Positions 4,155 to 55,829 of a DNA stretch of 64,000 bases are shown here, piece after piece. The notes beneath the pieces are model-generated. The model ran no database searches, had not been told where the DNA came from, and saw only the letters and a list, made by a program, of their open reading frames with translations. Positions within the stretch are counted from its first letter, which is position 1, and every line of letters starts with the position of its first letter. The stretch spans positions 1 through 64,000 of the forward strand of contig RBNJ01000004.1 in the NCBI GenBank assembly GCA_003990765.1, in the 5' to 3' direction. The position numbers and the translations under genes were made by a program. This DNA comes from Jimgerdemannia flammicorona. Taxonomy: Eukaryota.

Positions 4155-4415
4155 GGCTATGATGTGAGTGTGGAGTGTTTGTTTTCGGACAGAGGGCGGG
4201 CCTGAAATAGGCAAGCCACCAGCAGGTAATCGTCGTCATGCTTGGCAGGCTGGTGGTTCGATTTAGAACATAACCCTTGAAATAAAAATTCTCGCCCCCG
4301 TTCCTTTAACAGACAACCAAAGTCAAATACATAAATAAATACTCCTCAACTCAACCTCATAAGACATACACAAAGACACCACACCCACCACTCTTAAACT
4401 TCCCTCCCAATCCAC
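4155..4415. promoter_or_regulatory. Short divergent (bidirectional) promoter region
   Basis: Only 261 bp separate two head-to-head start codons. AT-rich ATAAATAAAT at about 4331 and an A/C-rich leader precede ATG 4416. Confidence 0.5.
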
Positions 4416-17034: not shown

Positions 17035-17579
17035 ACTAAGTGCTATATCTATATCTAGCATAGTCCAGATAGCCTCTCACTAATATAAATACCCCCTCTC
17101 CCAGACCTCAGAATTATAGACTTGAATACTTGAACAATCTGAATACAACTCCTGAGTACTTCCCCACAATATCTCTTCACATAACTACTCTTAGTATAGC
17201 AATATCATAAATAGAGAATAAACCTATTTAATAACCCACAAACTACTCTTAAGTAAATCTGTTCCCTATTAGATCCCACTCCTAACCCTGTTACAAAATT
17301 TCCTAATTGGGTATTGTCTGCAGCAATACACCAATTCAACTAAGCTGGTCTTAGTTTCTCAAACTTCCTGAAATACAGAAAATCCTGAACATCTAGAACT
17401 AGTCTAAAAAAGGACTTGGTTGAGACATCAACCTGATCTTGAAATCAATAAGTGTAGAGGACATACTCTATACAAAATTGATCTTGACCATAAGAAAAGA
17501 ATCTTCCAGAATATCTAGAACTTCCAGAAAACTCTTCCAGAACTACATAATGGTTACTCTAAAAAGCAACCCTCTTACA

Positions 17580-25378: not shown

Positions 25379-27431
25379 TGTAAGTATACAATCTCTAAGC
25401 CACTGAAATTACATATCACTCTCTAAACAAATCTGGAAATTATATGTAAAATCATGAAGCTGAGTCAAACTGAAGTTACAGAGTACAAAGTTGAGTCAAC
25501 TTGAAGTCACAGAATACAAGATTTATACAAATAGAACCTTACTAATAAGGACTAAATATATATATACTGAGTACTCAGATATATTAAAATAGAGAACTAC
25601 AATAAATAAAATAAATAACTATAACTCTTAAACAATATATATAACCATGACCACTGAGATCTATAACTATATCTATGCTGACATTTGGAATACTATTGTC
25701 AACTGAGCTAAACTCTCTCTGTCTCTCATAAATATCCATAGTCTGGTACCCCTCTACTTTAGGAAAGCCTGATAGAATGCCCTGAACATACTTAGTAAGG
25801 CCCACCAAATTGGACAAATCTCAAGCTACTACCAGATTGGCTGCCTCTTAGAAGACATGGTTGAACACTACTATAATACAGATATTATTCAGATATCTCA
25901 ATACCAGAAACTCATTGCCTGCAAATACTAAGAACTCTTTTGTGAGTATAGTATCTTTATTCCCTATCTCTAAGTTACTACTGCTAAAATGGTTTCTACT
26001 CTATCCTATGGCCAAATTGATGATATGGTATAAAAACTCAACCACAAGTATATTGAGTATATTCAAACTACAGACAAAATCTTTCTATATCTCAATGACC
26101 ACATCCTACAAATGTTCCAAGTTGGATATACCATAAAGGATGTCTATAATATAATTTAGTTTGATAATAATAAAGCAGAAGATAATAATCTCTTTATGCT
26201 GATATGATCTTTGTCAAGGATTCTTGCCAATCTTGATCACTCTACCAATCTTATTAATAAACTTATAATAGTTCATAACCACCTATGAGACCTAATGAGA
26301 TAATGACCACTAATATGAGTACCAACCTACATTCATCTCCAACTACTTTAACTACAATGAAGAGACTGGAGAATATAATCTATATCTCCAAATAACTCTT
26401 GAGATCAAACTGACCACCCTATCTCCCAAGTATGAACAAAATGAGCAATAGCTACTAGTATACTATAACTCTGCAACTCATAGTACCATAATCTACAGAA
26501 GGTACACAGATAGTAAATCTGATAAAAGTGAAGACAATATACCTCTCCTTCACCCACCAACTCCTTACTCAGTATATAAAATAGATAATGCTATCCTGTA
26601 GGATAGTGATAAGGTTCTAATATATTATTATCTGAGTGAATAGGGAGAAGTAATCTGAGAACTACTCTTCCTAGATGACTACTTCATCAGAGATGATATT
26701 ATTGATAGTGATGTTATCAAAGACTACTCAGATAGTATTTAAATTTATAGATAGCCTAGCAGTTATTAGTATAGTTAGATTAGTCTTATATGATGTAACT
26801 GAAAACTAACTCAGCAGTTAGATGATCTCTTGATATATCAGTTTACACTTATATTATATAACTGTATTTTGACTCAGCAAGGTACTAAAGTGCTATATTT
26901 ATATTCAGTATAGTCTAGATAGCCTCTTATTAGTATAAATACCCCCTCTCCCAGACCTCAGAATCTCAGACTTGAACAGACAAAAACAATTCAAATACAA
27001 CTCCTGAATACTTTTCTACAATATCTCTTTATATAACTACTCCTAGTATAGTAATATTATGAATAGCAAATAAATCTATTTAATAATCTACAAATCACTC
27101 TTAAGTAAATCTACACCCTATTAGGTCTCACTCCTAACTATATTATGAAATTTCCTAATTAAGTATTGTCTGTAGCAATATGCCAATTCAACTAAGCTGG
27201 TCTTAGTTTTTTGAATTTTCTGAAATACAGAAAATCCTAAACATCCAGAATAAGTCTGAAAAAGGACTTTAGTTGAGATATTAACTCAATCTTAAAATCA
27301 ATAAGTATAGAGGATATACTCTATATGAAATTAATCTTAACCTAAAGAAAACAGTCTTTCAGAATATCTAGAACTTCCAGAAAACTCTTCCAGAACTATA
27401 TAATAGTACTTTTATAAGTAACTCTTTTACA
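25379..27431 (+). repeat. 5' LTR of B1 (about 2.05 kb) containing accessory ORF remnant 25647-26742
   Basis: TGTAAG...TTTTACA; homologous to 34358-36420 and 49988-52020. Confidence 0.88.
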
Positions 27432-33464: not shown

Positions 33465-34357
33465 AACTGAACACTCTAGTACCTACTAGTTCTATACTAT
33501 ATATTACCCCTTTTGAATATTAAGTACTCTCATAATTATCATGAATGAAATCAAGAACTCAGCAAGTTAAGACAAAAGAATACCAACTCTCTAGAAAAAT
33601 AGCAAAACTGAAAGCCAGTCTATTCTCTCTATATTACTGGTAGGAAATAAGATATAGACATTTAAGAAGATTTCTTAGAGAAAATTCTCCAGCAGTGAAT
33701 GATATCAGAATTACTTCTGGTACAGCATCAAACACATGATCCTTTAATATATAAATTCAATATATTAGACAACTATACTATGAGCATGTCACTTTCTGAG
33801 AAAAATAGATGTTACTAGACTTTTGACTATCTAAATAGAGTAACAATGCTAGACTAAAATTAGAAGACCTTAATGAGGATATCAAAAGCTAAGAAGGAGA
33901 GAGTTGTAAGCACACAATTTTCAAGCCACCAAAATTACATATCACCCTCTGAACAAATCTGAAAATCATATATAAGATCATGAAACTGAGTCAAACCAAA
34001 GTTATAGAGCATAAAGCTAAGTCAACTTGAAGTCATGGGATATAAGATTTATATAAATAGAACCTTACCAATCAGGACCAAATGCATATATACTGAGCAC
34101 TCAGATATATTGAAATAAAGAACTATAATAAATAAAACAAACAACCACAACTCATAGAATGCTATTATCAACTAAGCTATACCTTCTTTATCTCTTATGA
34201 ATATCTATAGCCTGGCACCCCTCTACTTCATAAAAGCCTGATAGAATACCCTGAATATACTTAGTGAGACCTATTAAATCAGACAAATCTCAAGCTACTA
34301 CCAGATCAGCTGCTTTCTAGAAGATATGGTTGAACACTACCATGATATAGATATTAC

Positions 34358-36420
34358 TGTAAGCACACAACCCCCAAGCCACTGAAATCACACATGACCC
34401 TCTGAACAAGCCACCAAAATCACATGTGACCTCTGAACAAATCTGGAAATCACCTGCTCGATCATGAAGCTGAGTCAAACTGAAGTCACAGTGCACAAAG
34501 CTGAGTCAATATGAAGTCACAGAATACAAGATTTATATAAACAGAATCTTACCAATCAGGACCAAATACATATATACTGAGTATGAAGACATGTCGAAAC
34601 AGAGAACCAAAACAAACAACAACCACAACTTTCAAACATACAAATATGACCACTGAGATCTACAACTACATCCGCGCTGACATTTGGAATGCCATTGTCA
34701 ACCAAGCTACACCCCCTCTGCCCCTCATGAATATCCATAGCCTAGTACCCCTCTACTTCGTGGAAGCCTGATGGAATACCCTGAATATGCTTAACAAGGC
34801 CCACTGGATCAGACAAATCTCAAGCTACTACCAGATTAGCCGCCTCCTGGAAGACATGGTCAAACACCACTATAATACAGATATTATCCAGATATCTCAA
34901 CACCAGAAGCTCATCACCCACAAACACAGAGAACTCTTTTATGAGTATAGCACCTTTATTCCCTGCCTCTGAGTTACTACCAGCAAAATGGTTGCTACCC
35001 TATTCTATGGCCAAATTGACAACATGATACAAGAACTCAACCACAAGTATCTAGAATATATCCAGACTACAGACAGAACCTTCCCGCACCCTGATGACCA
35101 TATCTTGCAAATACCTCAAGTTGGATATATCATGAAGGACGTCTACAATATAATCTGATTTGACAAAGATGAAGCAGAAGACAATGATCCCTCTGACACC
35201 AATATGACCTCAAGCCAAGGATCTCTACCAACCCTGATCACACTGCCAACCTTGCTGATGAACTTACAACAGTTTATAACTACATATGAGACTTATTGGG
35301 ACAATGACCACTGGTATGAATATCAATCTGCATTTACCTCTGATTACTTTAACTATAATGAAGAGACTGGAGAACACAACCTATACCTTCAGACAACCCT
35401 CAAGACCAAACCAACCACTCCACCACCTGAGTATGAGTGACATGAACCACAGCTGCCAGCTTACTACAACCCTGCGACTCATAGTGCTGTAACCTATAGA
35501 AGATATGTAGATAGTGAAACTGATAAAAGCAAAGATGATGCACCACTTCTTTGCCCACAACACCTTATCCAGCATATGAGACAGATGATGCTATCCTGTG
35601 GGATGGTGATGAAGTTCCAATATATTACTACCTCAGCCAACAAGGAGAAGTAATCTGTGAACTACTCTTCCTGGATGACTACTTCATCAGAGATGATGTT
35701 ATTGATAGTGATGTCATCGAAGACTACCCAGATAGTATCTAAACCTATAAATAGCTTAGCAGTCATAGAATAGTTAGATTAGCCTTGTATGACATAACTG
35801 CAAACTGACTCAGTAGTCAGATGATCTCTTGATATGTCAGATCACACTTGTACTATGTGATTGCATTCTAACTCAGCAAAACACTTAGTGCTACATCCAT
35901 ATCTAGCATAGTTCAGATAACCCCTTACTAGTATAAATACCTCCTCCCCCAGACCTCAGAATCTCAGACCTGAACAATCTGAACACAACTCCTGAGCACT
36001 TCTCCACAATATCCCTTCACATAACTACTTCTAGTATAGCAATATTATGAATAGCAAATAAACCTATTTAATAACCCACAAACTACTCTTAAGTAAATCT
36101 GCTCCCTGTTAGATCCCACTCCTAACCCCATCACAAAATTTCCTAATTGGGTATTGTCTGCAGCTATATGCCAATTCAACTAAGCTGGCCTTAGTTTCTT
36201 GAACTTCCTGAAATATGGAAAATTCTGAACATCCAGAACTAGTCTAGAAAAGAACTTTGGTTGAGATATCAACCCAATTTTGAAATCAATAAGTATAGAA
36301 GATATACTCCATATGAAATTGATCTTGACCATAAGAAAATGATCTTCCAGAATATCCAGAACTTCTAGAAAAACCTTCCAGAACTACATAACAGTTACTC
36401 TAAAAAGCAACTCTCTTATA
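34358..36420 (+). repeat. 5' LTR of B2 (2063 bp)
   Basis: TGTAAGCAC...CTCTTATA, TATAAATA at about 35932, AATAAA at about 36057. Confidence 0.9.
34646..35742 (+). pseudogene. Accessory ORF (about 365 codons) inside the U3 of the family B LTR
   Basis: ORF pieces 34583-34771, 34787-34972 and 35204-35440 share one frame, separated by TGA (from CGA) stops. 35551-35742 follows after a 1 nt frameshift. Copies at 25647-26742, 50243-51344 and in the split B1 3' LTR. Confidence 0.78.
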
Positions 36421-36423
36421 ACT

Positions 36424-36435
36424 TGGTAGCAGCAG
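36424..36435 (+). other. Primer-binding site of family B, initiator tRNA-Met-like
   Basis: TGGTAGCAGCAG 3 nt after the LTR end. TGGTAGC is the usual start of an iMet PBS; tRNA identity is inferred. Confidence 0.7.
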
Positions 36436-37709
36436 TTTACAATCCAATTTTGCTTCAAGATGCTTCCTCACCCCACTACAAACCCTTCTGAGAATTCTTA
36501 TAAGTTGGTATAAAGCCCAACCTCTGAACTGGAATTTATTCTGAACCATCTGATAATCTGGAGAGAATTGAACCTGACATACAAGGACAATTTGACCTCT
36601 ACACCTATAACAAGTGGGACAAACTTCACTCAAAGAAAGAAGTACTCCAATTAAATCAGCAAATAGGTGAATCCCTATTCACCAAACTCCTTGCGCTACA
36701 CCCAGTAAGTCAAGATGAAGAAGGTCTTATAGAAGCCTTCTTTACCCTTCTCAATAAGAGTTTTGTCAGCTCCACAAATCTAAGTGACCTAGGACAACCA
36801 GCAGCAGTCTTTCTAGCCTTAGTTCCTCATGAAGCCCAAGTCTCTATAGCCAAGTGGCTCAACTCTACCGACTTTCACCATATCAGGACCAAGATTGCAT
36901 TATACTACTGATTCCAGAACAGCAAGACCTGCCATATTCTTAAAGAAGAAGCAAGAAAAACCCTTTATCAACTATCTGACCCCAAACCAGAAGCAGGCCC
37001 TGCTATAGCCCTACCCAAATCTGAAACCAATACTGAACCAGAACTTGACTTTGAATTGAGTCCATCTGAAATCAGATATATAACTGATTCTGTCTACTTT
37101 GACACTGAGTAAACCCAATTACATAAAGACCAAACCGAAGAGGAGGAGGAGTATCTCAGTGAATTTGATCCCGGATATACCACCAAAGGAGAAGCACCTC
37201 CATCAGGACAGAATATACCTATTGTGATGGTATAACCAGATTTAGAAGAAGGAAATAGGAAACAGACACTTGATTGTACCCAGTCCTAAAGTAGTATAGC
37301 CATATAGTTAGTAGTCCCCAATTTCACTATTTGCTAAATATTTTGCAAAGTGTTAAATGACTCATAATCTAGCCACATAACTCAGTAACCATCTCATAGC
37401 TATAAATAACCCAGTATCTTCAAGTGAATAAAACCTCAGATCAAAAGTGTTAGAAAAAAAGAACAAGTATACTGATAAAGGGACTTTCGGGATTACCTCT
37501 TTAAAACACATTTGGCCTCAAGGAACTACTGACTCTGGGAGTCAAGAAGACAAGAATTCAAGATAAAGAAATCTGATGTACTTGCCCATCTTAGCATCCA
37601 CTACATTACAACTTAGTGCCCATTGGCTGGTGATTCAAGATAAATCCCTCACTTTCAAGCTAAACAATGAATAATCGCAACAAGAACCCACACAACACAA
37701 TCAGACAAA

Positions 37710-40700
37710 ATGGATATGAGACCACCTATATTCCATGGATATATCTCCAACAAATCAATCATCATCTTCATTGATGATTTAGAGCAATATACTGCAGTAA
37801 GGACCTTAAGTGCAGTACAACAAGTAGCCTTACTCCCTGTAAGCCTCAGAGGCCCAGCAAGAACTGCATTCACCACAGCTAATATATAAGGAGCTGATAA
37901 TTCAGTAAGAATTCTGGCTTTTAAGACCTAGCTCCGAGCAACCTACTATACAGATGAAATCAAACAAGTACTCAAGGATCAATTGAATACTATCTGCCAA
38001 GGAATGTCCAAAGACTCAAACACATTTTACACAAGAATCCGATACCAAATAGTTCTCACTGACTATCCAGATGCAGTTCAAGACCAAGTGGCCGAGAATA
38101 CCTTCATGAAGGGCATTCATCAAGAAATTGCCTTAGCTATCTGATCTACCCCAACAGCACTGGACCTAGCATAAAAGGTTATCTATGCCCAAAGATACTG
38201 GACCACTAGACACTCTCAAGACCACACAATGGAAAGAATAACAGGAGTAAAAATCAAACAAGTACTGAGGATCACCAATACAGTTCCAACTACTATAGTC
38301 AACAGAAATACACAACCACAACCACAACTACAAGAGCAGAGAAGAGCTGACCCAATGGAGGAACTGGCCAAGTAGTTCACAGAAATGACTGTATACCTCA
38401 GTGATGTGGTCAAGGATAGTGCTCTCAATGAATCAAATCGAATTGAATTTGGCCCAAACTCAATTTGATTTGATTGAATCAAGGGTCCAATTTGATTTGA
38501 TTTAAATCGAATCAAAGGTCCAATTCAATTCAAAGTTCGATTCAAACTTTAATTTTCAAAATGTAATAACTTGACGAAACCTCATCCAAATTTAACGTAT
38601 TTTAGCTTGTTAGATTCACCATATTAATGTAATTCTAACAAGCTAAAGTACGTTAGATTTGGATGAGTTTACGCTGAGTTATTGTATTTTAAAAATTAGG
38701 GTTCAAATCAGACCCTCAATTCAATTTGACTTTTGATTTGATTTGAATTGATTTGAATTGAAAAATCCCCAATTCGATTTGACTCATTTAACCCTCAATT
38801 CGATTTGATTCGAATTGATTCAACTCATTTGGGAGTACTAGTCAAGGAGTTCAAGAAGAAGCCAGTACAGAAATTTGCAGCTACTTATGACAGATAATCA
38901 GTAACCTGCTACAGGTGTGGAGAAGAAGGCCATTATGCCTCCAATTACATGACAGAAACCAAGCACAAGGCCAATCCAAGTAATGCAACCAGAAACTGTG
39001 AACAGGCAAATACTATCACCTTTGAAGAGATTGGAGAATCTGAAGAGAAAAGGGAGGAATAGGAAGCTTATTCTGCTACTATAAGCAAGAAGGATGTACA
39101 AACCAGTCTCTACAAAAGACCTCTAGGCAGACCTCTTAAGAAGGCTCAGACACCAACAAAATAACCAGAAACAGTCATCAAAAAGGAAAGCCAGCAGACC
39201 GAAGCTGATCAAGATATGGAACTAGAACAAGACACTGAACTGGAGCAAGCAGTAGAAGATATTATTCGAAATACCACCCCATCAAGTGAAGGAAAGAAGG
39301 AACAGAAATTGTGCAAGAGCAAGACCTTCAAGTATGATATCTTCAAGGATCTCAAGGATCAAAAAGTAAATGCAACCTTTGGCCAGCTAGTGGAAATCCC
39401 AACATTCAGACAGCAAATGAGAACAGAGATATCTGATATTGGAAAGGATCAAGGCTACAGAATCATTGAAGCCAACAATGCACAAGAAGATTCTGATGAA
39501 GAAAGTGAAGATAATTGGAAGACATCAGCCTATGCTACCTGCCAGATCAAGGACCGAGTCTTTGAAGCTATCATTGATACAGGAGCAGAAGAATGTCTCA
39601 TCACCAAGAAAGCAGTAGACCACCTAGGCTGGGAGATAGAAGAAGCCACCAAATTGGTGTTTGCCACAGCTAATGGAACATGAGCAACACCTCTGGGAAA
39701 GATCCAGGATATATCCATCAAATTCAGAGAAGCTACTATCCCAGTAGATGTCATTGTCACAAATGCAACCAACTATGATATCCTTATTGACAATCAATGG
39801 CTTCACAAAGCCAAGGCAATAATTGATCTCAGTGTACAGAAGATGCAAATCATCTACCAGGGAAAGAAGATCAGAATTCTCATCAATGTCCACAAAGGAG
39901 TCTGCTCTGAGATGGAGGAAGAGCAAGAAGAAGCCTATATAGTTACTATGAAGAAGAAAAAAGGAAAGCAGTTGACAGAGGAGGAATGGTATAGGAAGAT
40001 CGCAGATGGATATGCCTTACTAGGAAGGTGCCCTCATGGTGAAAGAATATACTATACCCAGCACTTGGATCACTACTACTCCTACATCATCGAGGTGAAA
40101 AAGATTGCCAATAAGCCAAAAAAAAACCAGGAGGAATCAGAAGATGGACTACCAGAGCTATTGGATGACAGTGATGATAAAGAAGATATCACAGTCAAGA
40201 TACGAAGGATCTACCCTGATGCAGTCATACCACAGTACAAATCAGAGAATGCAGCAGGAATGGACCTGTCTACCACAATATATACAACTCTCGAACCACA
40301 AACCACTACTATACTGAGAACAGGAATCGAAGTAACCATCCCACCAAATTATGTCAGAATCCTCAAGACAAGAAGTAGCTTGGCAAAGAGTGAAATATCC
40401 ATAGAAGGAGGAGTCATTAATTCAGACTATATAGGAGAAATTCTCCTCCTTGCCAGGAATCATAATTCAACAATCCCATTTGAAGTAAGAAAGAAGAATA
40501 GGCTAGTGCAAATGCTCATCCTATCTGTCCTTAACCCAAGAATCAAGGAAGTTGCAAATATCAGACAAACTTAGTGAGGAAGAGCTGAATTTGGCTCTAT
40601 AGGAAGAGGAGTCCTTGCAGCAACCAAGATTATAGAATTGGAGCACAAGAAGGAGAAAAGCCAAGACAAACACACTTATGTAATTGGAAAGAACTTTCTC

Positions 40701-43310
40701 CTCAAGAAGGAGTTACAGAACCTCTTACATACATTTGAAGATATACTGGCCACAGATTTTAAGGACATCAAGACCAAGAAACTCTTATACTATCATGACA
40801 TCAATACTGAAGATATGAAACCAATCTATCAAAAAGCTCGCCCCATTCTGCCAGTATACAAGGAATGGCTCAAAACTGAAATCAAGGAAATGGAGGAATC
40901 TGGTATCATCAAGGAAGCCAGCAGTCCTTAGTCTTCACCTATTGTCCTTGTACCAAAGAAAGGAAGCCAACTAGGAGAATTTGCACCAAGACTCTGCACA
41001 GACTATAGAAGACTCAACGAGATTACAGAGAAGGATAGACAACCATTGCTCAATATTGGTGACATTCTTATCATACTGGGGAATAAATCACAATTTTACA
41101 CCACTCTGGATCTGTTCTCAGAATTCTACCAAATTGGCCTTACATCTGAAGCCAGCAAAATATCAGTCTTCATCACTTCTAATGGAATCTATATCTATCT
41201 CTATATGCCCTTTGGAATGTGCAATGCACCAGCAAGCTTCCAGCAAATGATGAATAGCATCTTCAGAGATATTATGGTAAAATGGATGATGGTATATGTA
41301 GATGATGTGATCATCTTCAGCTGAACAGCCAAGGAGCACTTGGAACATATCAAGGAAATCCTCAGAAGGCTTCACAAAAATGGCCTCTATATCAAGCCCA
41401 AGAAATGCAAATTTGGAGAAGAAGAAATTACATACCTCAGATACATCATCAACTGTGAAGGAATACATACAGATCCCACAAAGATCAAAGCAGTAGCAGC
41501 ATACCCAGTACCTACCAGTATCACTGAAGCCTGAGTCTTCATGGGACTAGCATCCTATTACTGGAGATTTATTCGAAGATTCTCCCATATTACCAGCCCT
41601 ATCTATGATCTGTTCAGAAAAGAGGTCAAGTTCTAGTAGACATAACAACAGCAACTAGTCTTCGATGAACTCAAGATCAGACTGACCCAGGCCCCAATCT
41701 TGAGAAGATCTGACTGGACATGAGAATTTATTCTACAGACAGATGCCAGTGCAATGAGACTTGGAGCTGTCCTTGCACAGAAGAAGAATGGCACTGAGTA
41801 TGTAGTAGCCTATCTCAGCCGAGGTACTCATGGAGTGGAGCAGTCCTATGAGTCATACAAGCTAGAATGTCTTACAGTCATCTGGACTGTAGAGAAGTTC
41901 CACTATTACCTGGTGGGAAGACACTTCACCATCCAGACAGACCACTCAGTACTTACCTGGTTGCTCACCACCAGTAAACTCAAAGGAATCTATGCCTGAT
42001 GGATCATAAAGCTGCAAGCATATGATGCCACAATCACTCACTGCCCTGGAAGAACCAATGCCAATACCGACACCCTCTCACAGATACCCCAAAGGACCCC
42101 ACCCCCACAAAATCACCATGAATAGAGAGCTGTACTATGGAATCATCAGTTATCTGGAGCAGTGAAAGATACCCCCATATCTGGAAGAATGGACAAAAAC
42201 AATTATTAATTGGACATGGAAACAATTCAAAACTGATAGAGAAATACTCAAGAAAGAATAACAATTAGTCATCCCTAAGCACTGGAAGAATCAAGTAATG
42301 AAAGAAGTACATGAACAAGGCTATGTAGGAGGAACAAATATATATGACAAAGTAAGAAGAACTATGTGGTGGCCTGGAATGGAAGAAGATATCAGAAAAT
42401 TCGTCAGAACCTGTGACAAATGCCAGAAATAGAAACAAGACCAACAAGATCAAGCCCCCAGATCAGCAGACATCGAACCAGTACTATTTGCCCACATAGC
42501 AATGGATGTAATTGGCCCTCTACCTTTGATATTAACAGGCAACCAATATGTCATCATGATTGTAGACCTATTCACAAAATGGGTAGAAGTCAGACCCCTC
42601 AAAGAAGCCAATGCACAGTCAATTGCCGATTTCTTTCACAGAGAAATCATCTGCCGATTCAAGACCCCAAAACAAGTTACCACAGATAGAGGAACAGAAT
42701 TTGTCAACTAGTTCTATGAGACTCTATACAAGAAGTACAAGATCTAGCACATCAAGACCATGGCTTATTACCTGCAAGGAAACAGATAAGCAGAAAGAAT
42801 CAACAAGACCCTCAAGAACATCATTGCCAAGATCTGTGATGAATATGGAAACTGGGACCACTATCTTCCAATAGCATTATCTACTCTGCAGGATATACAA
42901 TCACAAAGCACCCACTTCACACTGTAAGAAATGCTATTTGGAGAAGAAAGTTCTAGTGGAAGTTTGTCAGCAAATAATGATGCAGTCTGGACGTATGTGG
43001 ACACAGAGATATGGAGATTGCATAAAATTAGGAAAAAGGCAGAGAATTATATAATCAAGGCACAGGTACTATAATGGAGCAATGTGGAAAAGATCTATAA
43101 GCCCCTAGAGATTATTAAGATAGGAGATGAAGTCCTGGTGTACCAGAATATGATAGAAGCTTCTTGGTCATAAAAACTGGAGCCCAAGTGGAAAGGACCT
43201 TACCTGGTGCAAGATATAAAAGGGACCACTTTCTAACTATGAAAGCCCATAGGCACAATAATCTCCAACACCATTTACTGAAACTGACTCAAGAAATATC
43301 ATGGCCAGTA
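37710..43310 (+). pseudogene. C polyprotein remnant: gag-knuckle-protease-CPHG module-dUTPase-RT-RNase H-integrase (no chromodomain seen)
   Basis: CYRCGEEGHY, IIDTGAE, dUTPase at about 40190-40600 (AAGMDL, RSSLAK, GGVINSDYIGEI), RT YVDD, RNase H LQTDAS, integrase MDVIGPL...TDRGTEF. Confidence 0.9.
38417..38840. mobile_element. hAT-type MITE with perfect 8 bp TSD
   Basis: TSD GTCAAGGA at 38409-38416 and 38841-38848. TIRs TAGTGCTC.../...GAGTACTA. Internal inverted repeat at about 38552-38697. Confidence 0.93.
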
Positions 43311-43762
43311 ACAAAAGTACTGCGATTGCACTCAAGATCACTAGCACTGCCCAAAGAGCCATCAAGAGACAATGGCATACCACTGAGCCTCTGACTATAG
43401 AGGAGTCTTATGATAGTATTCAAAGCATTGTACAGACTCATCTCTCTTGGATCTCACACTTCAAAGCCTATCAGCATCAAAATGAATTTCAAGAGTACTT
43501 CAAACTTGGCCAAGTACTCAACCAAGACCCAGAAATGACCAAAGAAAATTGGATCACAGAATGCCAGCTCTCATATTCCCAGATCACCATTACTAAGAGA
43601 ATCTACAAGCTGTTTCAAGAGAATGAACCAGCACTAGTCCACCTGTGAGGAGTGACTCCCTCAGACTTTGACCGAGTCAGACGATACCATTGGGAAACAG
43701 TAATGCAACAAATCACACAATACAAGACCATACAGACCATTGAAGCCTGGGAGTTTGAATAG
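43301..43762 (+). pseudogene. Accessory ORF between integrase and the 3' LTR of element C
   Basis: ATG 43301 overlaps the pol stop (TAA 43308-43310). ORF 43301-43648 continues past a TGA (likely from CGA) as GVTPSDFDRVRRYHWETVM. Confidence 0.72.
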
Positions 43763-44263
43763 ATGCTTCAAGGATGAGATCATCTATTCAGAAGGAAGTT
43801 GTGATGGTATAGCTAGATTTAGAAGAAGGAAATAGGGAACAGATACTTGATTGCACCCAGTCCCAAAGTAGTATAGCCACATAGTTAGCAGTCCCCGATT
43901 TCGCCATTTACTAAATATTTCACAAAGTGCGAGATCGAGCTTCTCGATATAGTATATCATTTTGCAACTGGCAAAATATTTCACAAAGTATTAAATAACT
44001 CATAACCTAGCCACATAACTCAGTAACCAGCTCATAGCTAGCAAACTTATATAAATAACCCAGTATCTTCGAGTAAATAAAACCTCAGATTGAAAGTGTT
44101 AGAAAAAAAAAACAAGTATACCAATAAAGGAACTTTTGGGATTCCCTCTTTAAAACACATTTGGCCTCAAGGAACTATCAACTCTGGGAGTCAAGAAGAC
44201 AAGAATTCAAGTTAAAGAAATCTGACATACTTGCTCATCTTAGCATCTGCTATGTTACACTAT

Positions 44264-47200
44264 ACAGCAACAAACAGCTATCTATCAAGTCCTCACTCCA
44301 GACTCACAACTACTACTCCAGCAACTTATACAGACCCAAAGAACCCCATCACACTCTGCACCAGTACATCAAGTAGTACTAGTAACACCTCTACCAGTAG
44401 TCTAACCACCTCCAGTAAACAATATGGCCAACCAACAGATTCTAGACCTCACAGCCCAGATAGCAATAATGGCAGCAATCATTACTACCCTAGCTGAACA
44501 AACCTGACCTACTAAAAATCTGAGCCTACCTACCTTCAATGGTACTGTCCAAGAAGTCCAAAGCTTTATTAGTATAGTTGACACCAACTTCGAAGCCAAT
44601 CAATGGACCAATGAGTATGTAAGTGGCTGACCATGTTCTGACAAACAATCAAGACCACACTCTGGAACAACTCTTTGCTACTACTACAGCCTATGTCCAC
44701 CAAGTTGTTACATTCTTTCAAGGACCTGCCAAAGAATGGTAGTAAACCATTCCTGAAAACCCCCTCACATAGGACACCCAACCTGCAGTAGTTATACAGA
44801 ATGCAGCAAATAATACCCCAGGATATGGAGCCCATCCTGCAGCTCCTGGACTCAAACAACCCATAATTGCTCAATACCACAGTGAAACCATGATTGCTGA
44901 ATCTCGAGTAAAACTCCGCAACCTCAAATTTGATGTATATGGCAAAGAAGAATTTGAAACCTTCTGTACAAAACTCGAGTCACTTCTGAACACTGTTGGC
45001 CTAGGATATATTGCCAATGATGAAGTATGAAATGGTACAAGAGCAGACCATTTATTTGATGCCCTGCCTGAATGGCTTACTAAAAAAATCCAAGAACAAG
45101 GCCACCCAGTTGGTTGTGATCACCAACAATGGTGTCTAGCAAGAATCAAGGCTATGGTTAAGCAAATCCTAGCAGCAGGACCAATTCTGCCCTGAAGACA
45201 ATTCAATAACAAGGAAAAGACTTGGATCAAGAAAGAAGAACCCAAGCATGAAGCATCCTGAGCTCCCTCTATATTCATCTTTTGGATACTCAGAAATCAT
45301 AAATCCACCCAGCTGAGTACCTTCAAGAAACTCACTGAAGGAGAAAGAAATGAACTTTGAAGAAGCAGAGCATACTTCTATTGCCGAAAGACAGGACACA
45401 TGGCCAGTGCCTGCCCTAACTGAAAACCCTGAACAGCAATATGAGCAACTATGACCACTCTGCACTATCTCAATAACCTGACCACTAGAATACTAGACTT
45501 TGTCAAGTTAAGATAAACTGCAAAGGCCCCAACCAAAGGAAGCCAAAAAGCAGCTAGATATGACCTATATATAGTCAAAGAAGCTACAGTTTCCAACTGA
45601 GAAGTCAAGCAAGTCTATATAGAAATCAGTATCCAAATTCCTGAAGGATATGTTGGAAGAATATGCTGTCACAGCAGCCTAGTATTGAAAGGACTCTCAG
45701 TAGAAGGAGGAGTCATTGACAAGGATTATACATGCAAAATTATTGTCCTCATCTGAAACCATAGTTAGATACCCTTCAAGATCTCCATTAGTTTCTGCAT
45801 TACCCAGATTCTATTCAAAAAAATCGAGTTGACCCTGATAGTCAAAGAAGTCCCTGAACTACTGCCTACCATCTGAGGATCCAAAGGATTTGGCTCATCA
45901 AACAAGGCCCCAGCGCAATCAACTACAAATAAAGAAGAACAATTCTACAAAAAAATCGAAGATAGATATATACCAAGTAGCTGATGCCCCTATGACATTG
46001 AAATGTACTCTTCCTGAATGATTAATAATTGCTTTTCTTATATCAATGAACTGGCTCAAAGAAGAACCAACAGAAGGAAAGCTCCTATAACCAAAATCAC
46101 CACCATTAGATCAGACAAACTGCTTACACTTAAAGCTTTTATCAATCGAGCACCTATTAAGATTATGATAGACAGCAGTGTCTCAGGCAACTTCATCAAT
46201 GAAGAAACAGCCAACAGACTCAAGGTCTTCACCTCACTAGTACAACAAACTCAAGCAGTTGCCACAGCTGATGGAATCTTACATATTATTAGCAAGGAAG
46301 TTCGCAATCTGCCCTTCCGAATTGGTGACTATCAAGTACATGTTACCCTCCAGATCATATCACTCCCTGACAATGAAATCATCCTTGGAAACCTATGGTT
46401 AAAACAAGAGAACCTTATGATCAATTGGGTAAACCATTCTCTGACCATCAAGAAAGGATGCCATAACTTCAAACTACAAGGTGAAAAGGACCCACTTAGT
46501 TCTAGTGACTCTGGACCAAAGATTACTCACATCAACAAGCTACAACTCAAGAAATTAGCCAAGAAATACCCTCTCTTCATTATCTCCATCTGTCCATCCA
46601 AAGGAGAACCAGAGAACTCTGAAGAAGACTTTTCTAAAGTTGACAGCCATGTCAGACCTCTACTCTAGAAATTCTGAAACATATTTCCAAAAAAACTTCC
46701 AAAAGGCCTATCTCCCAAACAAGCAGTAGACCATACCATCAAGACTATCTCAGATGCCAAACCAGCCTTCAAGTCAATCTACCACATGTCTCCGAGAGAA
46801 ATTGATATACTCAAGAAAGAAATCGATGAACTCCTAGAACAAGGATTCATCAGACCTAGTGTATCACCCTATGGTGCACCAGTCCTCTTTGTTGTAAAGA
46901 AAGGAGGAGACCTATGAATGTGTATTGATTACCATGACCTCAACAAACAGACCATCAAGAACTGTTGCCCACTACTGAGAATTGATAAAATATTTGATAG
47001 ACTTACCAACCCACAATTCATGAGCTCTTTTGACCTGTGAAATGGTTACTGGCAAATTGCTATAAAAGAAGAAGACATCTACAAGACAGCCTTCCAAACC
47101 CACTATAGACACTTTGAGTTTCTGGTTATGCCCTTTGGCTTAACTAATGCTCCTGCAACCTTTCAGACACTGATGAACATCATCCTGTACCCATACCTGA

Positions 47201-49559
47201 ACAAATTTGTTGTTGTCTACATTGATGACATTCTAGTCTTCAGCAAAACCCTGGAGGAACATCTTGAACACCTTGAACTAATACTACTGAAACTCTGAGA
47301 AAACTGACTCTTTGCAAAACTCAGCAAGTGTAAATTTCTCCTGAAAGAAATTCAATTCCTTGGACACATTGTCACTCCAAATAGAATCAAAGTGGACCTC
47401 AGCAAAATCTCTGCAATCAAGGATTGGCCCAGACCCAAGAAGCTGAAAGACCTCCAGTCATTCTTGGGATTAGCAAACTATTATAGGCAATTTGTTGCCA
47501 ACTTTGCCAAAATTACTACTACCCTTACTCAAATGACCAAGCACAGCAAGAAAGAAGAACAACCCTGGACCATGAAACAAGAGAAAGACTTCAATAATCT
47601 TGCAAATTGAGGACCTGAGCAAGATACTGCCTTTCAAGCACTAAAGAATGCCCTGATAACCACTCCAGTACTTCAAGTAGCAAACCCTACACTACCATAT
47701 AAGGTTACCACTGATGCCTCTGACCTAGCCCTTGGAGCTGTGCTCATGCAAGAAGGACATTCTGTGGCCTATCATTTCCACAAGTTCAATGATGCCGAAA
47801 TCAACTATGCAATCTATAAGAAGGAAATGCTAGCCATTGTAAACACTCTGATCAAATAGTGACCATATCTAGAAGGAGCATACTTCACTGTATTGACTGA
47901 CCACAGTCATTAGTCAACATCAAGACATAGGCTACCCTTTCTCGAAAGCAAGCCAGATGGATGAAAGTCCTTACCAACTTTGACTATAAAATCCAGTATC
48001 ACCCTGGCAAGGAAAACATTGTTGCCAATGCAATCTCCAGACCACCTATCAAAGAAGTTATCTAAACTCTCACTCTGGTTACCAACTCTATCATGAAACA
48101 AATTATCACAGCATGTGCTAATAATAAGAAAGCTCAAGTACTCTGAGAAATCCTGAATAGTAATAATACTAATAAGTATACCCAGTACAATCAATACCAA
48201 CTTAAGGATAATACTATCTACTATAAGGACAGACTGTATGTCCCAAACAACCAAGATCTCTGAAGGACTATCCTATTTGAATATCATGATGTCCCTATAG
48301 CTGGACATTTAGGATTTGATAAATGCTATGAAGTTATCTACCAAAACTTCTATTGGCCCCATATGGCAGATCAGCTTAAGACCTACATCACTTCCTGTGA
48401 TGCCTGCCAATGGAACAAGTCCTCAACACTAGCAAAATCTGGCTTACTACACTCTATCCCAGTACCATCCACTAATTGGGAACAAATCTCTATGGACTTC
48501 ATTATGCAACTACCCCAAACTAAGAATGGAAAAGATACCATTGTTGTCTTTATGGACTATCTCAGCAAACAAGCCCACTTTGTGCCAATTACTATCACTG
48601 CAATAGCACCAGACATAGCCACACTCTTGTTTGACAACATCTTCTGCTATCATGGTCTTCCTAAGATCATTATTAGTGACTGAGATCTGAAATTCACCAG
48701 CCATTTTTGGAAAGCCCTCCATATGCACCTTGGAACAAAACTTGCACTATTCACAGCCTTTCACCCAGAAACTGATAGCCAAACTGAAAGAATGAACTGA
48801 ACTCTGGAACAAATACTAAGGAACTATGTTTCCTATAGATAAGATGATTGGTATGAACACCTCACTGCAGTTAAATTTACCTACAACAACAGCAAGCAAG
48901 CCTCCCTGAGAATGACTCCATTCTTCGCCAACACTAGACAAAACCCAAACACCCCTCTGACACTCATCCGAACTACTGACGAACCCTCTACAGTTGAAGT
49001 TGTTGAAGAATTCTTGCTCTGAATGTGTAATCTAAGCCAGATCACAATTGAGAATTTATCATGAGCTCAAGAACAACAGTCACAGTATATTAACCAATAC
49101 TACTGAGAAGAAATCTTTGACATTGGAGAAAAAGTTCTACTAGATATCTGAGAATACCGAGTTGACAACCTCAAGCACAAACCATCTATAAAGCTAAACA
49201 GCAAGTTCATTGGACCATTTGAAGTTATTGTATAAGTCTCCCCTACTTCCTACAAATTGGTGCTACCCAATATCATTAAGGTCCACCCAGTCTTTAATGT
49301 CCAATGTCTCAAGTGATACAATGACAATGACAATGAGCTATTCCTCAACTGGACCACCAAACCACCTGTACCTGTCATAATTAATGACCAAGAAGAGTAT
49401 GAAGTTGAACAAATTCTCAACAAATGTGAAAGCAAAAACCACCCTGAGTACCTTATCAAATGGAAAGGTTACCCAATCCATGATGCCACATGGGAACTCA
49501 AGACCAACCTTCAGAATGCTACTGACTTAGTTCAGGAATATGATTCTTTGAACAACTGA
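44264..49559 (+). pseudogene. B2 polyprotein remnant: gag-knuckle-dUTPase-CPHG module-protease-RT-RNase H-integrase-chromodomain (N-terminal extension lies at about 36490-37222)
   Basis: dUTPase at about 45490-45900 (KAPTKGSQKAARYDL, GGVIDKDY, GSKGFGSS). Protease MIDSSVSGNFI, RT YIDD, integrase ISMDFI, chromodomain EYEVEQIL...YLIKWKGYPIHDATWE. Confidence 0.9.
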
Positions 49560-49987
49560 AATCCGAATACTCCGACACCTATCAGTATATACTATATATT
49601 ACCCCCCCAAACATTATAATTATCATAAACAAAATCAAGAACTCAGTAAAATAAGACAAGAACATTAATCTTCTAGAAAAATAGCAAAACTGAAAGCCAG
49701 CCTATTCTCCCCATACCACTGGTGGGAAATGAGGCATAGATATTTAAGAAGATTCTTTAGAGGAAATTCCCCAGCAGTGAATGATGTCAGAATCACTTCT
49801 AGTGTATGGCATCAAACACATGACCCTTTAATATGTGAATCTGATGCATTAGGCAACTGTACTACAAGTGTGTCACTTTCTGAAAAAATGGACTTCACCA
49901 GATTTTTGACCTTTTAATCAGTATAACAACACTAGAACAAAATTAGAAGACTCCAATGAGGACATCAAAAGCTAAGAAGGGGAGAGT

Positions 49988-52020
49988 TGTAAGTACACAA
50001 CTCCTAAGCTACTGAAATCACACATAACCCTCTGAATAAGCCACCGAAATTACACACAACCTCTGAACAAATCTGGAAATCACCTGCTTAATCACGAAGC
50101 TGAGTCAAACTGAAGTCACAGTACACAAAGCTGAGTCAACATGAAGTACCAATTAGGACCAAATACATATATACTGAGTATAAAGATGTGTCAAAACAGA
50201 GAACCAAAACAAACAATAACCACAACTTCCAAATACACAAACATGACCACTGAGATCTACAACCGCATCCGTACTGACATTTGGAATACTATTGTCAACC
50301 GAGCTACACTCTCTCTGCCCCTCATGAATATCCATAGCCTAGCACCCCTCTACTTCATGGAAGCCCAATGGAATGCCCTGAACATGCTTAATGAGGCCCA
50401 CCGGATTGGACAAATCTCAAGCTACTACTAGATCAGCCACCTCCTGGAAGACATGGTCAAACACCACTATGATACAGATATTACCCAGATATCTCAACAC
50501 CAGAAGCTCATCACCCGCAAACACAGAGAACTCTTTTATGAGTACAGCACCTTTATTCCTCACCTCTGAGTTACTATCAGTGAAATGGTTGCTACCCTGT
50601 CTTATGGCCAAATTGATGACATGATATAAGAACTCAACTACAAGTACCTAGAATATGTCCAGACCACAGACAGAACCTTCCTGCACCCTGATGACCATAT
50701 CTTGCAAATGTCTCAAGTCAGATATACATATCATGAAGGATGTCTACGATATAATCTGATTTGATGAATATGAAGCAGAAGACAATAATCCCTCTGATGC
50801 TGACATGATCTCAAGCTAAGGATCTCTACCAACTCTGATCATGCTGCCAATCTTGCTGATGAACTTACAACAATTCATAACTGTATATGAGACTTATTGG
50901 GACAATGATCACTGATATGAATATCAACCCACATTCACTCTAAATTACTTCAACTATAATGAAGAGATCAGAGAACATAACCTGTACCTTCAGACAACCC
51001 TCAAGACTGAACCAACCACTCTACTACCTGAGCATGAGTGACATGAACCACAGCCACCAGCTTACTACAACCCTGTAACTCATAGTACTATAACCTATAA
51101 AAGGTATGTAGATAGTGAAACTGATGAAAGTGAAGACAATGTATCACTCCTTCACCCACTGATACCTTATCCAGTATACAAGACAGATGATGCTATCCTG
51201 TGGGATGGTGATGAAGTTCCAATATATTACTACCTCAGCCAATAAGGAGAAGTAATCCATGAACTACTCTTCCTGGATAACTACTTCATCAGAAATGATA
51301 TCATTGATAATGATGTCATCGAAGACTACCCAGACAGCATCTAAACCTATAAATAGCTTAGCAGTCATAGAATAGTTAGATTAGTCTTGTATGATGTGAC
51401 TGTGAACTGACTCAGCAGTCAGATGATCTTGACATATCAGATCACACTTGTACTATGTGACTGCATTCCGACTCAGCAAGGCACTTAGTGCTATATCCAT
51501 ATCTAACATAGTCCAGATAGCCCCTCACTAATATAAATATCCCCTCTCCCAGACCTCAGAATCTCAGACCTGAATAATCCGAACACAACTCCTGAGCACT
51601 TCTCCACAATATTCTTTCACACAACTACTCCTAGTATAGCAATATCATGAATAGCAAATAAACCTATTTAATAACCCACAAACTACTCTTAAGTAAATCT
51701 GCTCCCTGTTAGGTCTCACTCCTAACCCCATCACAAAATTTCCTAATTGGATATTGTCTGTAGCTATATGTCAATTCAACTAAGCTGGTCTTAGTTTCTT
51801 GAACTTTCTGAAATATGGAAAATCCTGAATATCTAGAACTAGTCTGGAAAAGGACTTTGGTTGAGATATCAACCCAATCTTAAAATCAATAAGCATAGAG
51901 GATGTACTTCATACAAAATTGATCTTGATCATAAGAAAACAGTCTTCCAGAATATTCAGAACTTCCAGAAAAACCTTCCAGAACTATGTAACAGTTATCC
52001 TAAAAAGCAACTCTCTTACA
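49988..52020 (+). repeat. 3' LTR of B2 with accessory ORF remnant 50243-51344
   Basis: Follows the PPT; TGTAAG...CTCTTACA. Confidence 0.9.
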
Positions 52021-52140
52021 ATTACCCAGATATCTCAACATCAGAAACTCATTGCTTTTTTTTTTTTTTTTTTTTTTTATAGTCCCTTGGACTCCGTCTT
52101 TATTATCAATCTATGAATAAGTATACAATAACACCACCCT

Positions 52141-55100
52141 CTACCCTATCCCCATTGGGGGACCCCTCCCCACCTCTCTATGTATAAAGACCACCCTCTC
52201 ACTAATAACTCCAACTCTCCCACCACTCTGACCACAGATTTTCACCACTAAGCAGCGCCTCCGACCCCCCTGCAGCCCCCAACCAAGCCACCAGCCTGTC
52301 AAGGTATCCTCCATAAGGCACTGCCACTGTGATAACCGGCTCCCCAAGCTCTGTCACCTCCCCTCCTCAAATACAAATAGCCAGTGACTGGCCAGCCCAA
52401 CTCAAATAGCCAACGCCCAGCCTAGAGTAATCCACTACTCCCCTACCCCTCCTATCAATCGATCCCTCAGATCCTCCCACCTCCCCCGTACATCATCACC
52501 CCTATGCCTTACCCCCAAGCGGTCCCCAATGGCCCACCAAAAGTCACCCAATACCTCACACTCCTCAAGCCAATGTTCTGGCATCTGTACAAATTCTCCT
52601 TCCTGCCCTACATTATAGTATTCCTCGCAGTCAAAGCAGCCCCCTACAACAAGGTGACCTGAGCAGAAGTTAAGCATCACATTCCTCCTCAGCACCCACC
52701 ACCAGACCACCCAGTACTTCGGCAGCATCCAATTTTTCACCGCAGCACTCCAGGTCCAAACCCCCTGCCAGTCCCACTCCTCACCAATTCCAACTCCTTG
52801 CCAACTACTAGGCCACAGATCCTGGCCTGGTCCCCTTTGGCATTCGATTCCATCACCAATATTGAACTCCAGTAAAGGCATACCTCCCAGAAGAATGCCA
52901 TCCCATCTCCACATTGCCAGGCCCCAAGCCCTCTCCCCCTCATCTCCTTGCCAGCAAATATCAATGCGGTGTGCCCCCTTGGCTATCCCCAATGAGAAGC
53001 CTTTATATTACAGTTGCCCAGTATTCTGAAGCCCAACTAATGAAAGAAGATCACCAGTCAAGCCTCTTAGTGATGTCCGCCTCTCCCACACCTTCTGCAG
53101 CAGGGGAACCCAGCCCCCTCCATGCAACTCCACCGCCCTCCTAAGCCACCATGCCCTCAAGCAGTGTAGTCTTTTAGGGAAGTCCACCAGCTCAAGACCA
53201 CCTCTCGCCACCAGTAGGGATAGTGTCTCCCAACCAATCTGACTCTGTCTGCCAGCCCAAATCCATCCCTTGGCCACCTTCACCAATCACTTTACCACCC
53301 AGGCTGGGAAGTCCAGATAATAAGCCAAATACCACAGTTTTGGCAGCCAGTATACATTCAAAATCGAGATCCTTCCTGCCAGAGAGAAGTGTCTTCCCCC
53401 CCAACTCCACAGGTCCTCCTCCCAAATTCCAATCCTCTGCTCCCACCACAGCCTGGGCAGAACAGACCCATAGATGGACAAAAATATGCCCAAGTACTGC
53501 ACTGCCTCTCCGGTGGGGACAATTGTTCCAATAACCTCTCTGCCCACCAGTCCATTGTCTAGCACTATCGTTTCACACTTGTGCCAATTCAGCTTCACCC
53601 CAGAGTTCTCCTCATACCACTCCACTGTCTTCTTGAGCTCCTCGACATCTGCAGTTACTCCCAAACTAACCACTATGTCATCTGCAAAGGCTCCAACTTT
53701 CCAGCCAATTCCATAGATAGAAAGCCCCACAATCTTCTGCCGAATTCGGTCCATTAGAGGCTCTAAGGAAAGTGTATACAAAATGGAGGACAGTGGGTCC
53801 CCCTGGGGCACTTCTCTACCCAGAGGGAATGCTACCCCTCTATGCCCATTACACACGAGCGCAGCCCTACTCCTTTCCAGTAGGCTGACCATCACTGCCC
53901 GAAATGAGACTGGAACCCCAATCCTATCCAACACTTTTGCCAGCCAGACTTGCTGCACTCGGTCATAAGCCTTCTCCTGGTCTAAGAAGACAAGACACCC
54001 ATCCAGTCCACAGGCTCGAGCACTCTCAATAACACCATGTACCCAGGCTGTGCCATCTCGAATAAGCTGACCCCCTATGAAGCCCCTCTGCTCAACACCC
54101 ACAATTTGCTGGGCCATCTTCTGCAGCCTTGCGACCACCACCTTAGTCACTAACTTTCTGTCCATATCTAGCAACATTATTGGCTGCCAGTTTTTCCAAT
54201 CCTCTTGCCTTCCCTTGTTCTTATAAAGCAGCATCATCAGCCCAAGATCCTGCTCCCCCACCCATCTCCCTGACTGCAATATGGAGTCACATAGTGCTGT
54301 CAACTCTCCCAATATGCCCGGGACTCCAACCATTCGCTTCCAGAAGTCCCAGGGGAGGCCATCCTCCCCAGGCGCCATACCTGAGGCTGTTGCGGCAAGA
54401 ACCTGATGGATCTCGTCCTCTGTTACAGGCATCACCAGGTCACCTAATCCCTCAGCTCATGGAGGGCGCCAATCTTCTAATGTTTGTTCAATGGCTGTAG
54501 CATCTGCCCCACCCTCCTCCTCACTCCATAATCCACTCCATCATGTCTTCAGTATTCCAAGGATATCCTGTACACTATGCACTAGTCTACCCTCTGAGTC
54601 AAGTACCCCTTCCCACCACTGCTGTACCCTTCTCACTCAAAGTGTCCTCATAAGAAACTTGGAAGGCCTCTCCCCTTCCTTTAGCCCCTGCCAACGAAGC
54701 TGCGCCACCAGGCCTTGCACCCTTGACTCTTCCTCTTCCCACAGCACCTGTTGTAGTTCCCCAACCTCTATCTTCACTCTTGTTATTCTCCAATCCTCTT
54801 CTCTCTCTACTACTGTCAGACTCGCCCACTCCTCCAGAAGTCTAGCCAATCTAGTAGAAGCCCAATGCACTCTCTGCCTTCGCTGCCTCCCAGCCACTCT
54901 GCCAGCCTTGCTCCAATACATCCTGGCCATCTCTTTCATCCTCCTCCACTGAACCCCAATTGTGGCCCCTTCCTGCCGCCAATTTACCATCTTCATCTGA
55001 ATGTCATTTGCCCACTCCTTCCACCGGGACTCATCATCCAACAAAGAGGAATTCAGGTGCCAATGTCCAGGCTCATCACTACTTCCCCCAAAACACCCCT

Positions 55101-55797
55101 GTTCCAAAAGGCCCCAGTGGTCTGACCATGGACACCATTCTACCTCTAGCACCTTCCAAACGTCGCGGCCCCAACAGTTGGCTATCAGAATCCAGTTAAT
55201 CCTTGTCCCCAGGCCTCCAGCCCAATGTGTATATACCCTCCTGTCCCCCCAGTATTCCCTACCAGCATCCACCAGCACTCCTAGTCTTTCAACCTCCTCC
55301 CACATCACCAGCCCCCCACTCCTGCTCTCAGCACCCCGTCCTCCATCAGTTCTATCCAGCCATACATCCCAAACCATATTGAAATTGCCTCCAAGTATAT
55401 CCAACCCAGCTTCAGCAAGGATCCCACTCTCCAGGAGCCCTTTCACCCAATCCACATACTCCCCCCACACAGCAGAGCAGTAACAGGAGCCAACTGTAAC
55501 TGGCTCCCAACCTGCACGAATCCACTCACCCCAGACCAGTCTCTCCTCCCAGCTCCTCACATTCTGTATCTCCCCTCTGCCTTTCCGAATCAGAATCCCA
55601 ACCTTGCTGTTCCAAATTGCCATGCCACCCCATTCCTTAGTCCATTCCATCCTATCAGAATCATCCTTGCACCTGACATCCTGCAAGAGGAAGAGATCGG
55701 CCTCCAATCCCTTCAACCAAATAAAAATGTTCCTACATCTAACTGTGCCCCTTAGCCCATTTACATTTAAAGAAAAAATGTTGGTTGTACTGTTCAT
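52141..55797 (-). pseudogene. LINE ORF2: AP endonuclease, reverse transcriptase, C-terminal Cys/His region; a few stops and frameshifts
   Basis: SLNVNGL, LLQD, ILGGNFN and SDH (APE motifs); APGEDGLP, FLDQEKAYDRV, PQGDPLS, AFADD and YLG (RT motifs). Confidence 0.9.
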
Positions 55798-55829
55798 AAT
55801 AAAATATGGTTTGTTTGCAATCAATTCTT

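Follow-up and report, generated by a model that had tools for sequence, protein, structure and literature searches.

An orphan gene under purifying selection inside the long terminal repeat of a Ty3/Gypsy retrotransposon

The window, the whole 64,000-nucleotide stretch of DNA analyzed here, contains retroelements nested in one another and adjoining a few host genes (Table 1). The gene described below is borne by a family B element that is a Ty3/Gypsy chromovirus, with the domain order protease, reverse transcriptase (RT), RNase H and integrase, a terminal chromodomain, paired long terminal repeats (LTRs), a primer-binding site (PBS), a polypurine tract (PPT) and a 5-bp target-site duplication (ATTAC, at 34353–57 and 52021–25). 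Pfam places the protease at 46018–46668, RVT_1 at 47041, RT_RNaseH at 47611 and Integrase_H2C2 at 48264, and the chromodomain (PF00385, E 1.2e-16) occupies 49317–49556 at the C terminus of the integrase. Gag-like and dUTPase-like stretches of the internal region were recognized by eye; the dUTPase was not confirmed by Pfam. A search for the tRNA that primes from the PBS-like site found none. The 5′ LTR has the termini TG...TA here, with CA in most copies.

The element sits inside the 3′ LTR of an older family B element. Between its own two LTRs there are 205 transitions and 2 transversions over 2025 sites, which points to a recent insertion followed by heavy C>T/G>A change, and the CpG observed/expected ratio is 0–0.25 in the repeats versus 0.8–1.1 in positions 1–6000. 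The same old LTR also carries a LINE (52062–57928, minus strand) with endonuclease and RT matches and a poly(A) tail, apparently flanked by a ∼16-bp target duplication. A nested Ty3/Gypsy element at 37220–44259 has LTRs of ∼400 bp, a protease and a Pfam dUTPase at 39684–40574; a second dUTPase lies at 62562–63044.

Two further frames were noted in the family B internal region. The first, a frame of ∼270 codons at 36423–37240 (loci L013, L038 and L043), starts at the PBS, reaches ∼55 codons back into the LTR end and has 2–6 stops in natural copies; with no clear ATG and no Pfam match, it is a possible extra ORF upstream of gag. The second is an 82-codon stop-free stretch in the ∼420 bp that follow the chromodomain stop and precede the PPT (49560–49975), with no Pfam match and a frame inconsistently kept among copies. 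Outside the elements, a prefoldin-like host gene with introns was recognized by eye at ∼3250–4155 (minus strand), where CpG content is normal; Pfam gave no match to one of its short exons. A His/Pro-rich ORF at 4398–5111 (plus strand) likewise has normal CpG content and no Pfam match, and 1368–1720 is a tandem array of GATTCGGATTG-like units.

Table 1. Features of the family A and family B elements in the window
Feature	Position	Strand	Remarks
Family A LTR gene, 282 codons	10645..11493	+	two premature stops here; LTR ∼10403–11873
Older family B element, 5′ LTR	25379..27431	+	broken gene copy, 25647–26739
Older family B element, 3′ LTR, first piece	33905..34357	+	insertion target; rest at 52021–52061 and 57929–58759
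Split gene copy	34158–34357 / 52021–52056 / 57929–58752		
Family B Ty3/Gypsy element bearing the gene	34358–52020	+	
5′ LTR, family B	34358..36420	+	2063 bp; TGTAAG at 34358 to CTTATA at 36420
TGAGTCA site 1	34471..34477	+	
TGAGTCA site 2	34502..34508	+	
TATA-like TATATAAA of the initial annotation	34534..34541	+	private to the window copy
CCAAT box	34552..34556	+	kept in 81/85 copies
TATATA, candidate TATA for P1, the promoter of the gene itself	34571..34576	+	83/85 copies
LTR gene, 365 codons	34646..35742	+	pseudogene here; ATG 34646, TAA 35740–42
TGACTCA between stop codon and main TATA	35806..35812	+	at least one TGA[CG]TCA in 58/59 copies
Main LTR TATA TATAAATA, candidate P2 for genomic RNA	35932..35939	+	57/59 copies
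AATAAA poly(A) signal	36057..36062	+	59/59 copies
PBS-like TGGTAGCAGCAG	36424..36435	+	
Rest of internal region: protease, RT, RNase H, integrase, chromodomain	44260..49559	+	many stops
Polypurine tract	49974..49987	+	directly before 3′ LTR
3′ LTR, family B	49988..52020	+	2033 bp; second broken gene copy, 50243–51341

The whole of the 365-codon frame is contained in the 2.06-kb 5′ LTR. The initial annotation described this frame as an ORF, but in the window it is interrupted by premature stops at 34769, 34970, 35156 and 35438 and by a one-base frameshift near 35555, and it is missing from the listing of window ORFs of at least 150 aa. The same annotation counted the gene in four family B LTRs. 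Remnants are indeed present in all four, but every one of them is broken or interrupted. The gene is not an extension of the integrase, because pol stops at ∼49559, well before the PPT.

A DNA search of the genome (231 Mb) returned 4722 candidates, 40 of which were scored; in a protein search, 34 of 102 scored matches were stop-free, in a set biased towards the open query. Eighty-nine loci, 59 of them picked by protein similarity, gave 85 distinct copies covering the frame. Intact copies, which had been proposed as a check on the open frame, do occur: 26 of these 85 natural copies are fully open. The ATG is present in 85/85 and the TAA stop in 84/85, and the mean number of stops is 1.7 in the gene frame versus 14.6 and 29.7 in the other sense frames. 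Within the gene, indels are confined to 5 of the 85 copies and none is shared; the LTR 3′ of the stop codon has many shared indels.

The codon-position bias in non-transition substitutions, on which the earlier reading had been staked, is also present. Shared transversions in the 85 copies concentrate at third positions (8/5/28 at codon positions 1/2/3), compared with 7/9/10 in the non-coding LTR end; 22 are synonymous, against an expectation of 14.7%, and 18 non-synonymous (p = 3.5e-9). In a random sample of 45 copies from the 85, pairwise dN/dS came to 0.14 with transversions and 0.25 with transitions; the transversion value is higher, 0.55, over residues 91–180. Because 59 loci had been chosen by protein similarity, the test was repeated on two sets of copies chosen by other means. 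The 30 copies chosen by DNA, two of them open, gave shared transversions of 6/2/17. A further 29 were selected solely on non-coding LTR DNA, and the 23 of these that span the whole gene gave 4/1/14 (p = 4e-4), with dN/dS of 0.12 for transversions and 0.30 for transitions, an open gene in 3/23 and a single shared indel, of 3 nt. No clean gene-less LTR was found among the 29, the other six being cut by contig or locus ends or interrupted.

At the same CpG sites, the frequency of synonymous change is 0.29–0.30 versus 0.10–0.11 for non-synonymous change, a difference of ∼3-fold, and in the non-coding LTR the directions of CpG change are symmetrical. Most premature stops are at codons containing CpG, and their scatter over haplotypes shows them to be recurrent rather than inherited. 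Taken with the selection signal, this scatter indicates that the amplifying lineages retained the protein and that single insertions decay later. The gene codes for a protein, amplifying lineages have kept it under purifying selection, and individual copies decay after insertion by C>T/G>A change; we regard it as almost certain that the LTR frame is a real, selected gene.

These tests bear directly on whether the frame is instead a non-functional or recently captured host sequence, open merely through the youth of the family. The four broken copies in the window, the lack of a named homolog and a fold model without confidence would suit such an origin. It is, however, refuted by the selection tests, with dN/dS of 0.12–0.14 and third-position bias; moreover, the protein has a 64% identical relative, and protein searches at near and shorter length and in a representative library gave no host-gene match. 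We consider it very improbable.

Two side observations concern the copies themselves. Shared transversions occur in mosaic haplotypes (loci L002 and L004–L089), suggesting frequent recombination among family B copies. In the window, 16327–17034 and 17035–17579 are tandem truncated family B LTR ends without the gene; the first, which is preceded by an A-run, appears to be a remnant and not a variant without the gene.

The gene occurs in 5′, 3′ and solo LTRs: of 85 loci, 18 are 5′ LTRs, 33 are 3′ LTRs and 7 are solo LTRs bearing target-site duplications; 25 are cut by the locus end and 2 are unclassified. As the initial annotation had it, the frame lies upstream of both the main LTR TATA and the AATAAA, which are conserved motifs, and the positions of these motifs would place the gene in U3. 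Upstream of the ATG, the annotation had also pointed to two TGAGTCA sites and a second TATA. Both TGAGTCA sites are kept in 71/85 copies and at least one in 82/85. We take them to be of the AP-1/Gcn4 type; in fungi, Gcn4-type factors bind TGA[CG]TCA. The TATA named at ∼34534 fared differently, as TATAAA is found there in 1/85 copies, the window's own, while most read CTACACAAAC or similar. This TATA-like TATATAAA is a private mutation, not a conserved element. The promoter-like module is nevertheless conserved, with its candidate TATA in the TATATA at 34571, which lies ∼75 nt upstream of the ATG and is separated from it by an A/C-rich leader.

The gene probably has its own predicted promoter upstream of the start of genomic RNA. 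LTR variability, taken per 100-nt stretch, is 0.04–0.07 almost throughout, and the conservation of LTR motifs may merely reflect the youth of the whole LTR. A third TATA-like motif or 3′-end signal, TATAAAT at 35746–35752, stands right after the stop codon in 50/59 copies. In contigs from two presumed-RNA runs, whose library type is unclear, depth lies mainly downstream of the main TATA (locus L038, 2950–3450), with little over the LTR gene and almost none over the internal region. Such contigs reveal neither starts nor levels, and we draw no conclusion from the depth of these runs.

The two sets of motifs could be assigned the other way around, with the upstream promoter as the main one, the gene as the first ORF of a genomic RNA with a very long R, and the TATA at 35932 as secondary. 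The upstream module is conserved as well as the downstream one, and LTRs with two promoters exist, as in barley BARE-1, which offers a precedent. However, RNA from P1 would meet the AATAAA 1.4 kb on, still in the 5′ LTR and before the PBS, and the spacing between TATA and AATAAA (125 nt for family B, ∼27 nt for family A) matches a normal short R. A long R is therefore improbable.

The start codon bears on a different arrangement, in which the gene of the 3′ LTR is expressed in the manner of nef or sag from a spliced RNA begun in the 5′ LTR, possibly yielding an RNA-silencing suppressor or host-modulating protein. Such expression could make use of the stop-to-stop frame, which at 412 codons extends 47 beyond the ATG frame, and the mRNAs of mouse mammary tumor virus (MMTV) sag begin at several promoters, including the 5′ LTR and env, according to the available part of PMC4667437. 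Against this, the ATG is invariant in all 85 copies, has an A at −3 and follows closely on the promoter motifs, whereas an in-frame ATG upstream is present in only 33/85 copies and the region upstream of the ATG lacks third-position bias (4/7/3). We judge a spliced message of this kind to be rather improbable too; both it and the long R are less likely than the regulator and cofactor readings discussed below. A longer start that would give 410 aa was rejected as the general start, since its ATG is the one present in only those 33 copies.

The family B protein has 365 residues, a mass of 42.9 kDa and a pI of 4.3. Its C-terminal half had been described as acidic and Tyr/Pro-rich, and the composition of an open copy agrees: residues 201–365 contain 22% D+E, 11% Y and 10% P, with a net charge of −32. 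With W+F+Y at 16%, this region has the combination of acidic and aromatic residues that marks acidic activators, on composition alone. Residues 1–140 are near neutral; the Tyr/Pro-rich remainder, residues 141–365, has a net charge of −43. A clear basic stretch for DNA binding or nuclear import was not found (K+R is 9% in residues 1–140 and 3% thereafter), nor was any membrane segment, the maximum 19-residue hydropathy being 1.04. The AlphaFold model has a helical N-terminal part, at a pLDDT of 31 and hence weak.

The product of the LTR gene is an orphan, with no family, fold or named homolog found. Pfam gave no match at E ≤ 10, and PDB sequences nothing below E 0.46; in the Atlas, the best scores of 0.81 and 0.87 are at chance level and all matches stay below 0.9. 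A search for proteins of near length yielded 1 match among 817 candidates and one at shorter length 1 among 35, and a representative library gave 3, of which the third (P0003) was rejected as an unrelated repeat protein. The only significant relatives are two unnamed metagenome proteins, 64% and 94% identical, the former aligned over 250 columns and ending at the same terminal residue. Scans of metagenome contigs confirmed 0/74 and 0/339 stretches.

Family A carries a comparable gene in its LTR. The frame is open from ATG to stop in 8/30 copies, and the layout upstream of the ATG is the same as in family B, with TGAGTCA in 26/30 and TATAAAA in 30/30. The selection signal is thin (shared transversions 2/1/1). 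The family A protein has six metagenome relatives at 55–84% identity; its AlphaFold model reaches a pLDDT of 42, and Foldseek with this model returned nothing at E ≤ 0.001 in PDB or BFVD. Between families B and A there is a weak translated match (E 1.0), and in hhalign the two N termini give a collinear alignment of 104 columns with 25% identity (E 0.0094, probability 4%). Smith-Waterman scores were matched in 0, 1, 4 and 319 of 500 shuffles for four partners and HMM scores in 12 of 1000; BLASTP alone is not significant (E 4.1). From these alignments the N termini of the two proteins are probably homologous, with homology not established. A third, more decayed family (loci L120–L132) encodes a protein that has ∼50–65% identity to P0008 and is a relative of the LTR protein of family A, and several of its loci have TGAGTCA and TATA upstream.

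What the protein does for the element can be approached from its charge and its mode of retention. One possibility is a cis-acting cofactor of replication, in particle assembly, reverse transcription or integration, whose acidic tail would mimic nucleic acid or act as a chaperone, working beside the dUTPase and possibly countering host enzymes of repair or deamination. Strong purifying selection in a family of thousands of candidate loci, together with the lack of any gene-less LTR in 29 copies, suggests that the benefit returns to the encoding element; a purely diffusible product acting in trans should let gene-less variants spread, so that a cis-linked role fits this observation better than a free activator does. 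The net charge of −43 over residues 141–365 is also in keeping with a cofactor. The separate promoter-like module and the position in the LTR, however, better suit a separately regulated product than a component of the particle, and Pfam, PDB sequences and AlphaFold supplied no supporting motif or fold. We regard a replication cofactor as unlikely, if far from negligible.

The best overall reading, to which we give a probability of roughly 45%, is a separately transcribed accessory regulator that aids expression of the element or counters its silencing. The gene would encode an accessory protein in a lineage of dUTPase-bearing Ty3/Gypsy chromoviruses, from a position upstream of the main TATA. 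P1 at the start of the LTR, comprising the two TGAGTCA sites, CCAAT and TATATA, would drive an mRNA of ∼1.5 kb ending at the LTR AATAAA, and genomic RNA would start from the second TATA (35932), 3′ of the stop codon of the gene. With TGA[CG]TCA at both promoters, both may answer to one host bZIP factor. The protein would combine a predicted helical N-terminal part (∼1–140) with the acidic, aromatic and proline-rich tail, and would most likely work in the nucleus as a regulator, either increasing transcription of the element or protecting it from methylation-linked silencing by the host. The regulatory or anti-silencing role is ranked first on account of the acidic tail with its aromatic residues, the promoter of the gene's own and how strongly repeats are attacked by mutation; taken by itself, it is a tentative assignment, conceivable but short of even odds. 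Against this reading stand the want of homology that would indicate a function, the lack of a clear basic stretch in the protein and the dead state of most copies.

Since the gene lies wholly inside the LTR, every element has two copies and every solo LTR one. A broader proposition is that a fungal Ty3/Gypsy radiation made the LTR a self-contained gene for a new protein family, equipped with promoter and poly(A) site, which supplies a transactivator or anti-silencing protein and persists across families. In this full form the proposition is doubtful. If it were true, both LTRs and every solo LTR could supply such a protein, the gene would have stayed in the LTR even between families with LTR DNA that can no longer be aligned, and the system would be a retrotransposon counterpart of the accessory genes of complex retroviruses.

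Annotation pipelines treat LTRs as non-coding. With a selected orphan protein of 42 kDa in a high-copy fungal LTR, solo LTRs stay potential genes, and the protein is a marker for aligning LTRs between families. It is also a concrete candidate for an element-encoded regulator or counter-defense in a heavily repeat-mutating genome, and it raises the question of why a gene with thousands of copies is under purifying selection. A literature search of main texts, few of them from subscription journals, found no report of a fungal retrotransposon with an LTR-internal gene.

Among the accessory regulators of mobile elements are lentiviral nef, foamy-virus tas/bel and transposon anti-silencing proteins such as Arabidopsis VANC, with nef and bel overlapping U3. 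These genes begin outside the LTR, or else are DNA-transposon genes, and the LTR protein has no similarity to their products in any search. The analogy with sag and nef drawn in the initial annotation holds for position, but not for sequence, nor is there a hydrophobic membrane segment. The sag product is a type II membrane protein; in contrast, the LTR protein has no sequence homology to it and no membrane segment, and a superantigen role cannot apply.

Additional ORFs are a recognized feature of LTR retrotransposons, and include env-like genes, Grande gene23, RIRE2, Retand and Boty in the available text of PMC7264820, as well as ORF0 of Retrosat2 (PMC3485330, likewise in the part available). 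As described there (PMC7264820), their place is the internal region, either before gag or past pol but short of the 3′ LTR, in sense or antisense; Grande gene23 is driven by a promoter of its own, and its product is nuclear. Like these ORFs, as far as the available text characterizes them, the LTR gene is family-wide, obscure in origin, conserved as other element genes are and without database homologs: the whole gene is present in 23/29 copies, is conserved and has no host homolog, as expected of a family-wide, non-transduced additional ORF. It differs in lying after the PPT and being duplicated with the LTR, whereas none of the additional ORFs in the available part of PMC7264820 is inside an LTR. 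Env-like sense ORFs, in particular, lie between pol and the 3′ LTR and are transmembrane, in contrast to a gene inside the LTR with no transmembrane segment.

The element itself resembles the dUTPase-bearing fungal chromoviruses in its Ty3/Gypsy domain order and in the chromodomain that ends the integrase, to the extent that PMC2774666 is available. The dUTPase link is provided by Pfam dUTPases in neighboring elements of the window, that of family B having been recognized by eye. No LTR-encoded gene is described for these chromoviruses in the available part of PMC2774666.

The closest parallel in layout is MMTV sag, a superantigen gene in U3 of a betaretroviral LTR (PMC4667437, available text). 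In both, a gene occupies a normally non-coding LTR upstream of the main promoter (in U3, judged here from the motifs) and is kept in solo LTRs. Both also show a purifying signal in mostly dead copies, with dN/dS of 0.289 for the mostly dead endogenous sag copies in the available part of PMC4667437 and 0.12–0.14 here. Unlike sag, of which only "the majority" lies in the LTR according to the same partial text, the entire ORF and its candidate promoter are in the LTR, and the bearer is an env-less Ty3/Gypsy retrotransposon whose host is probably a fungus.
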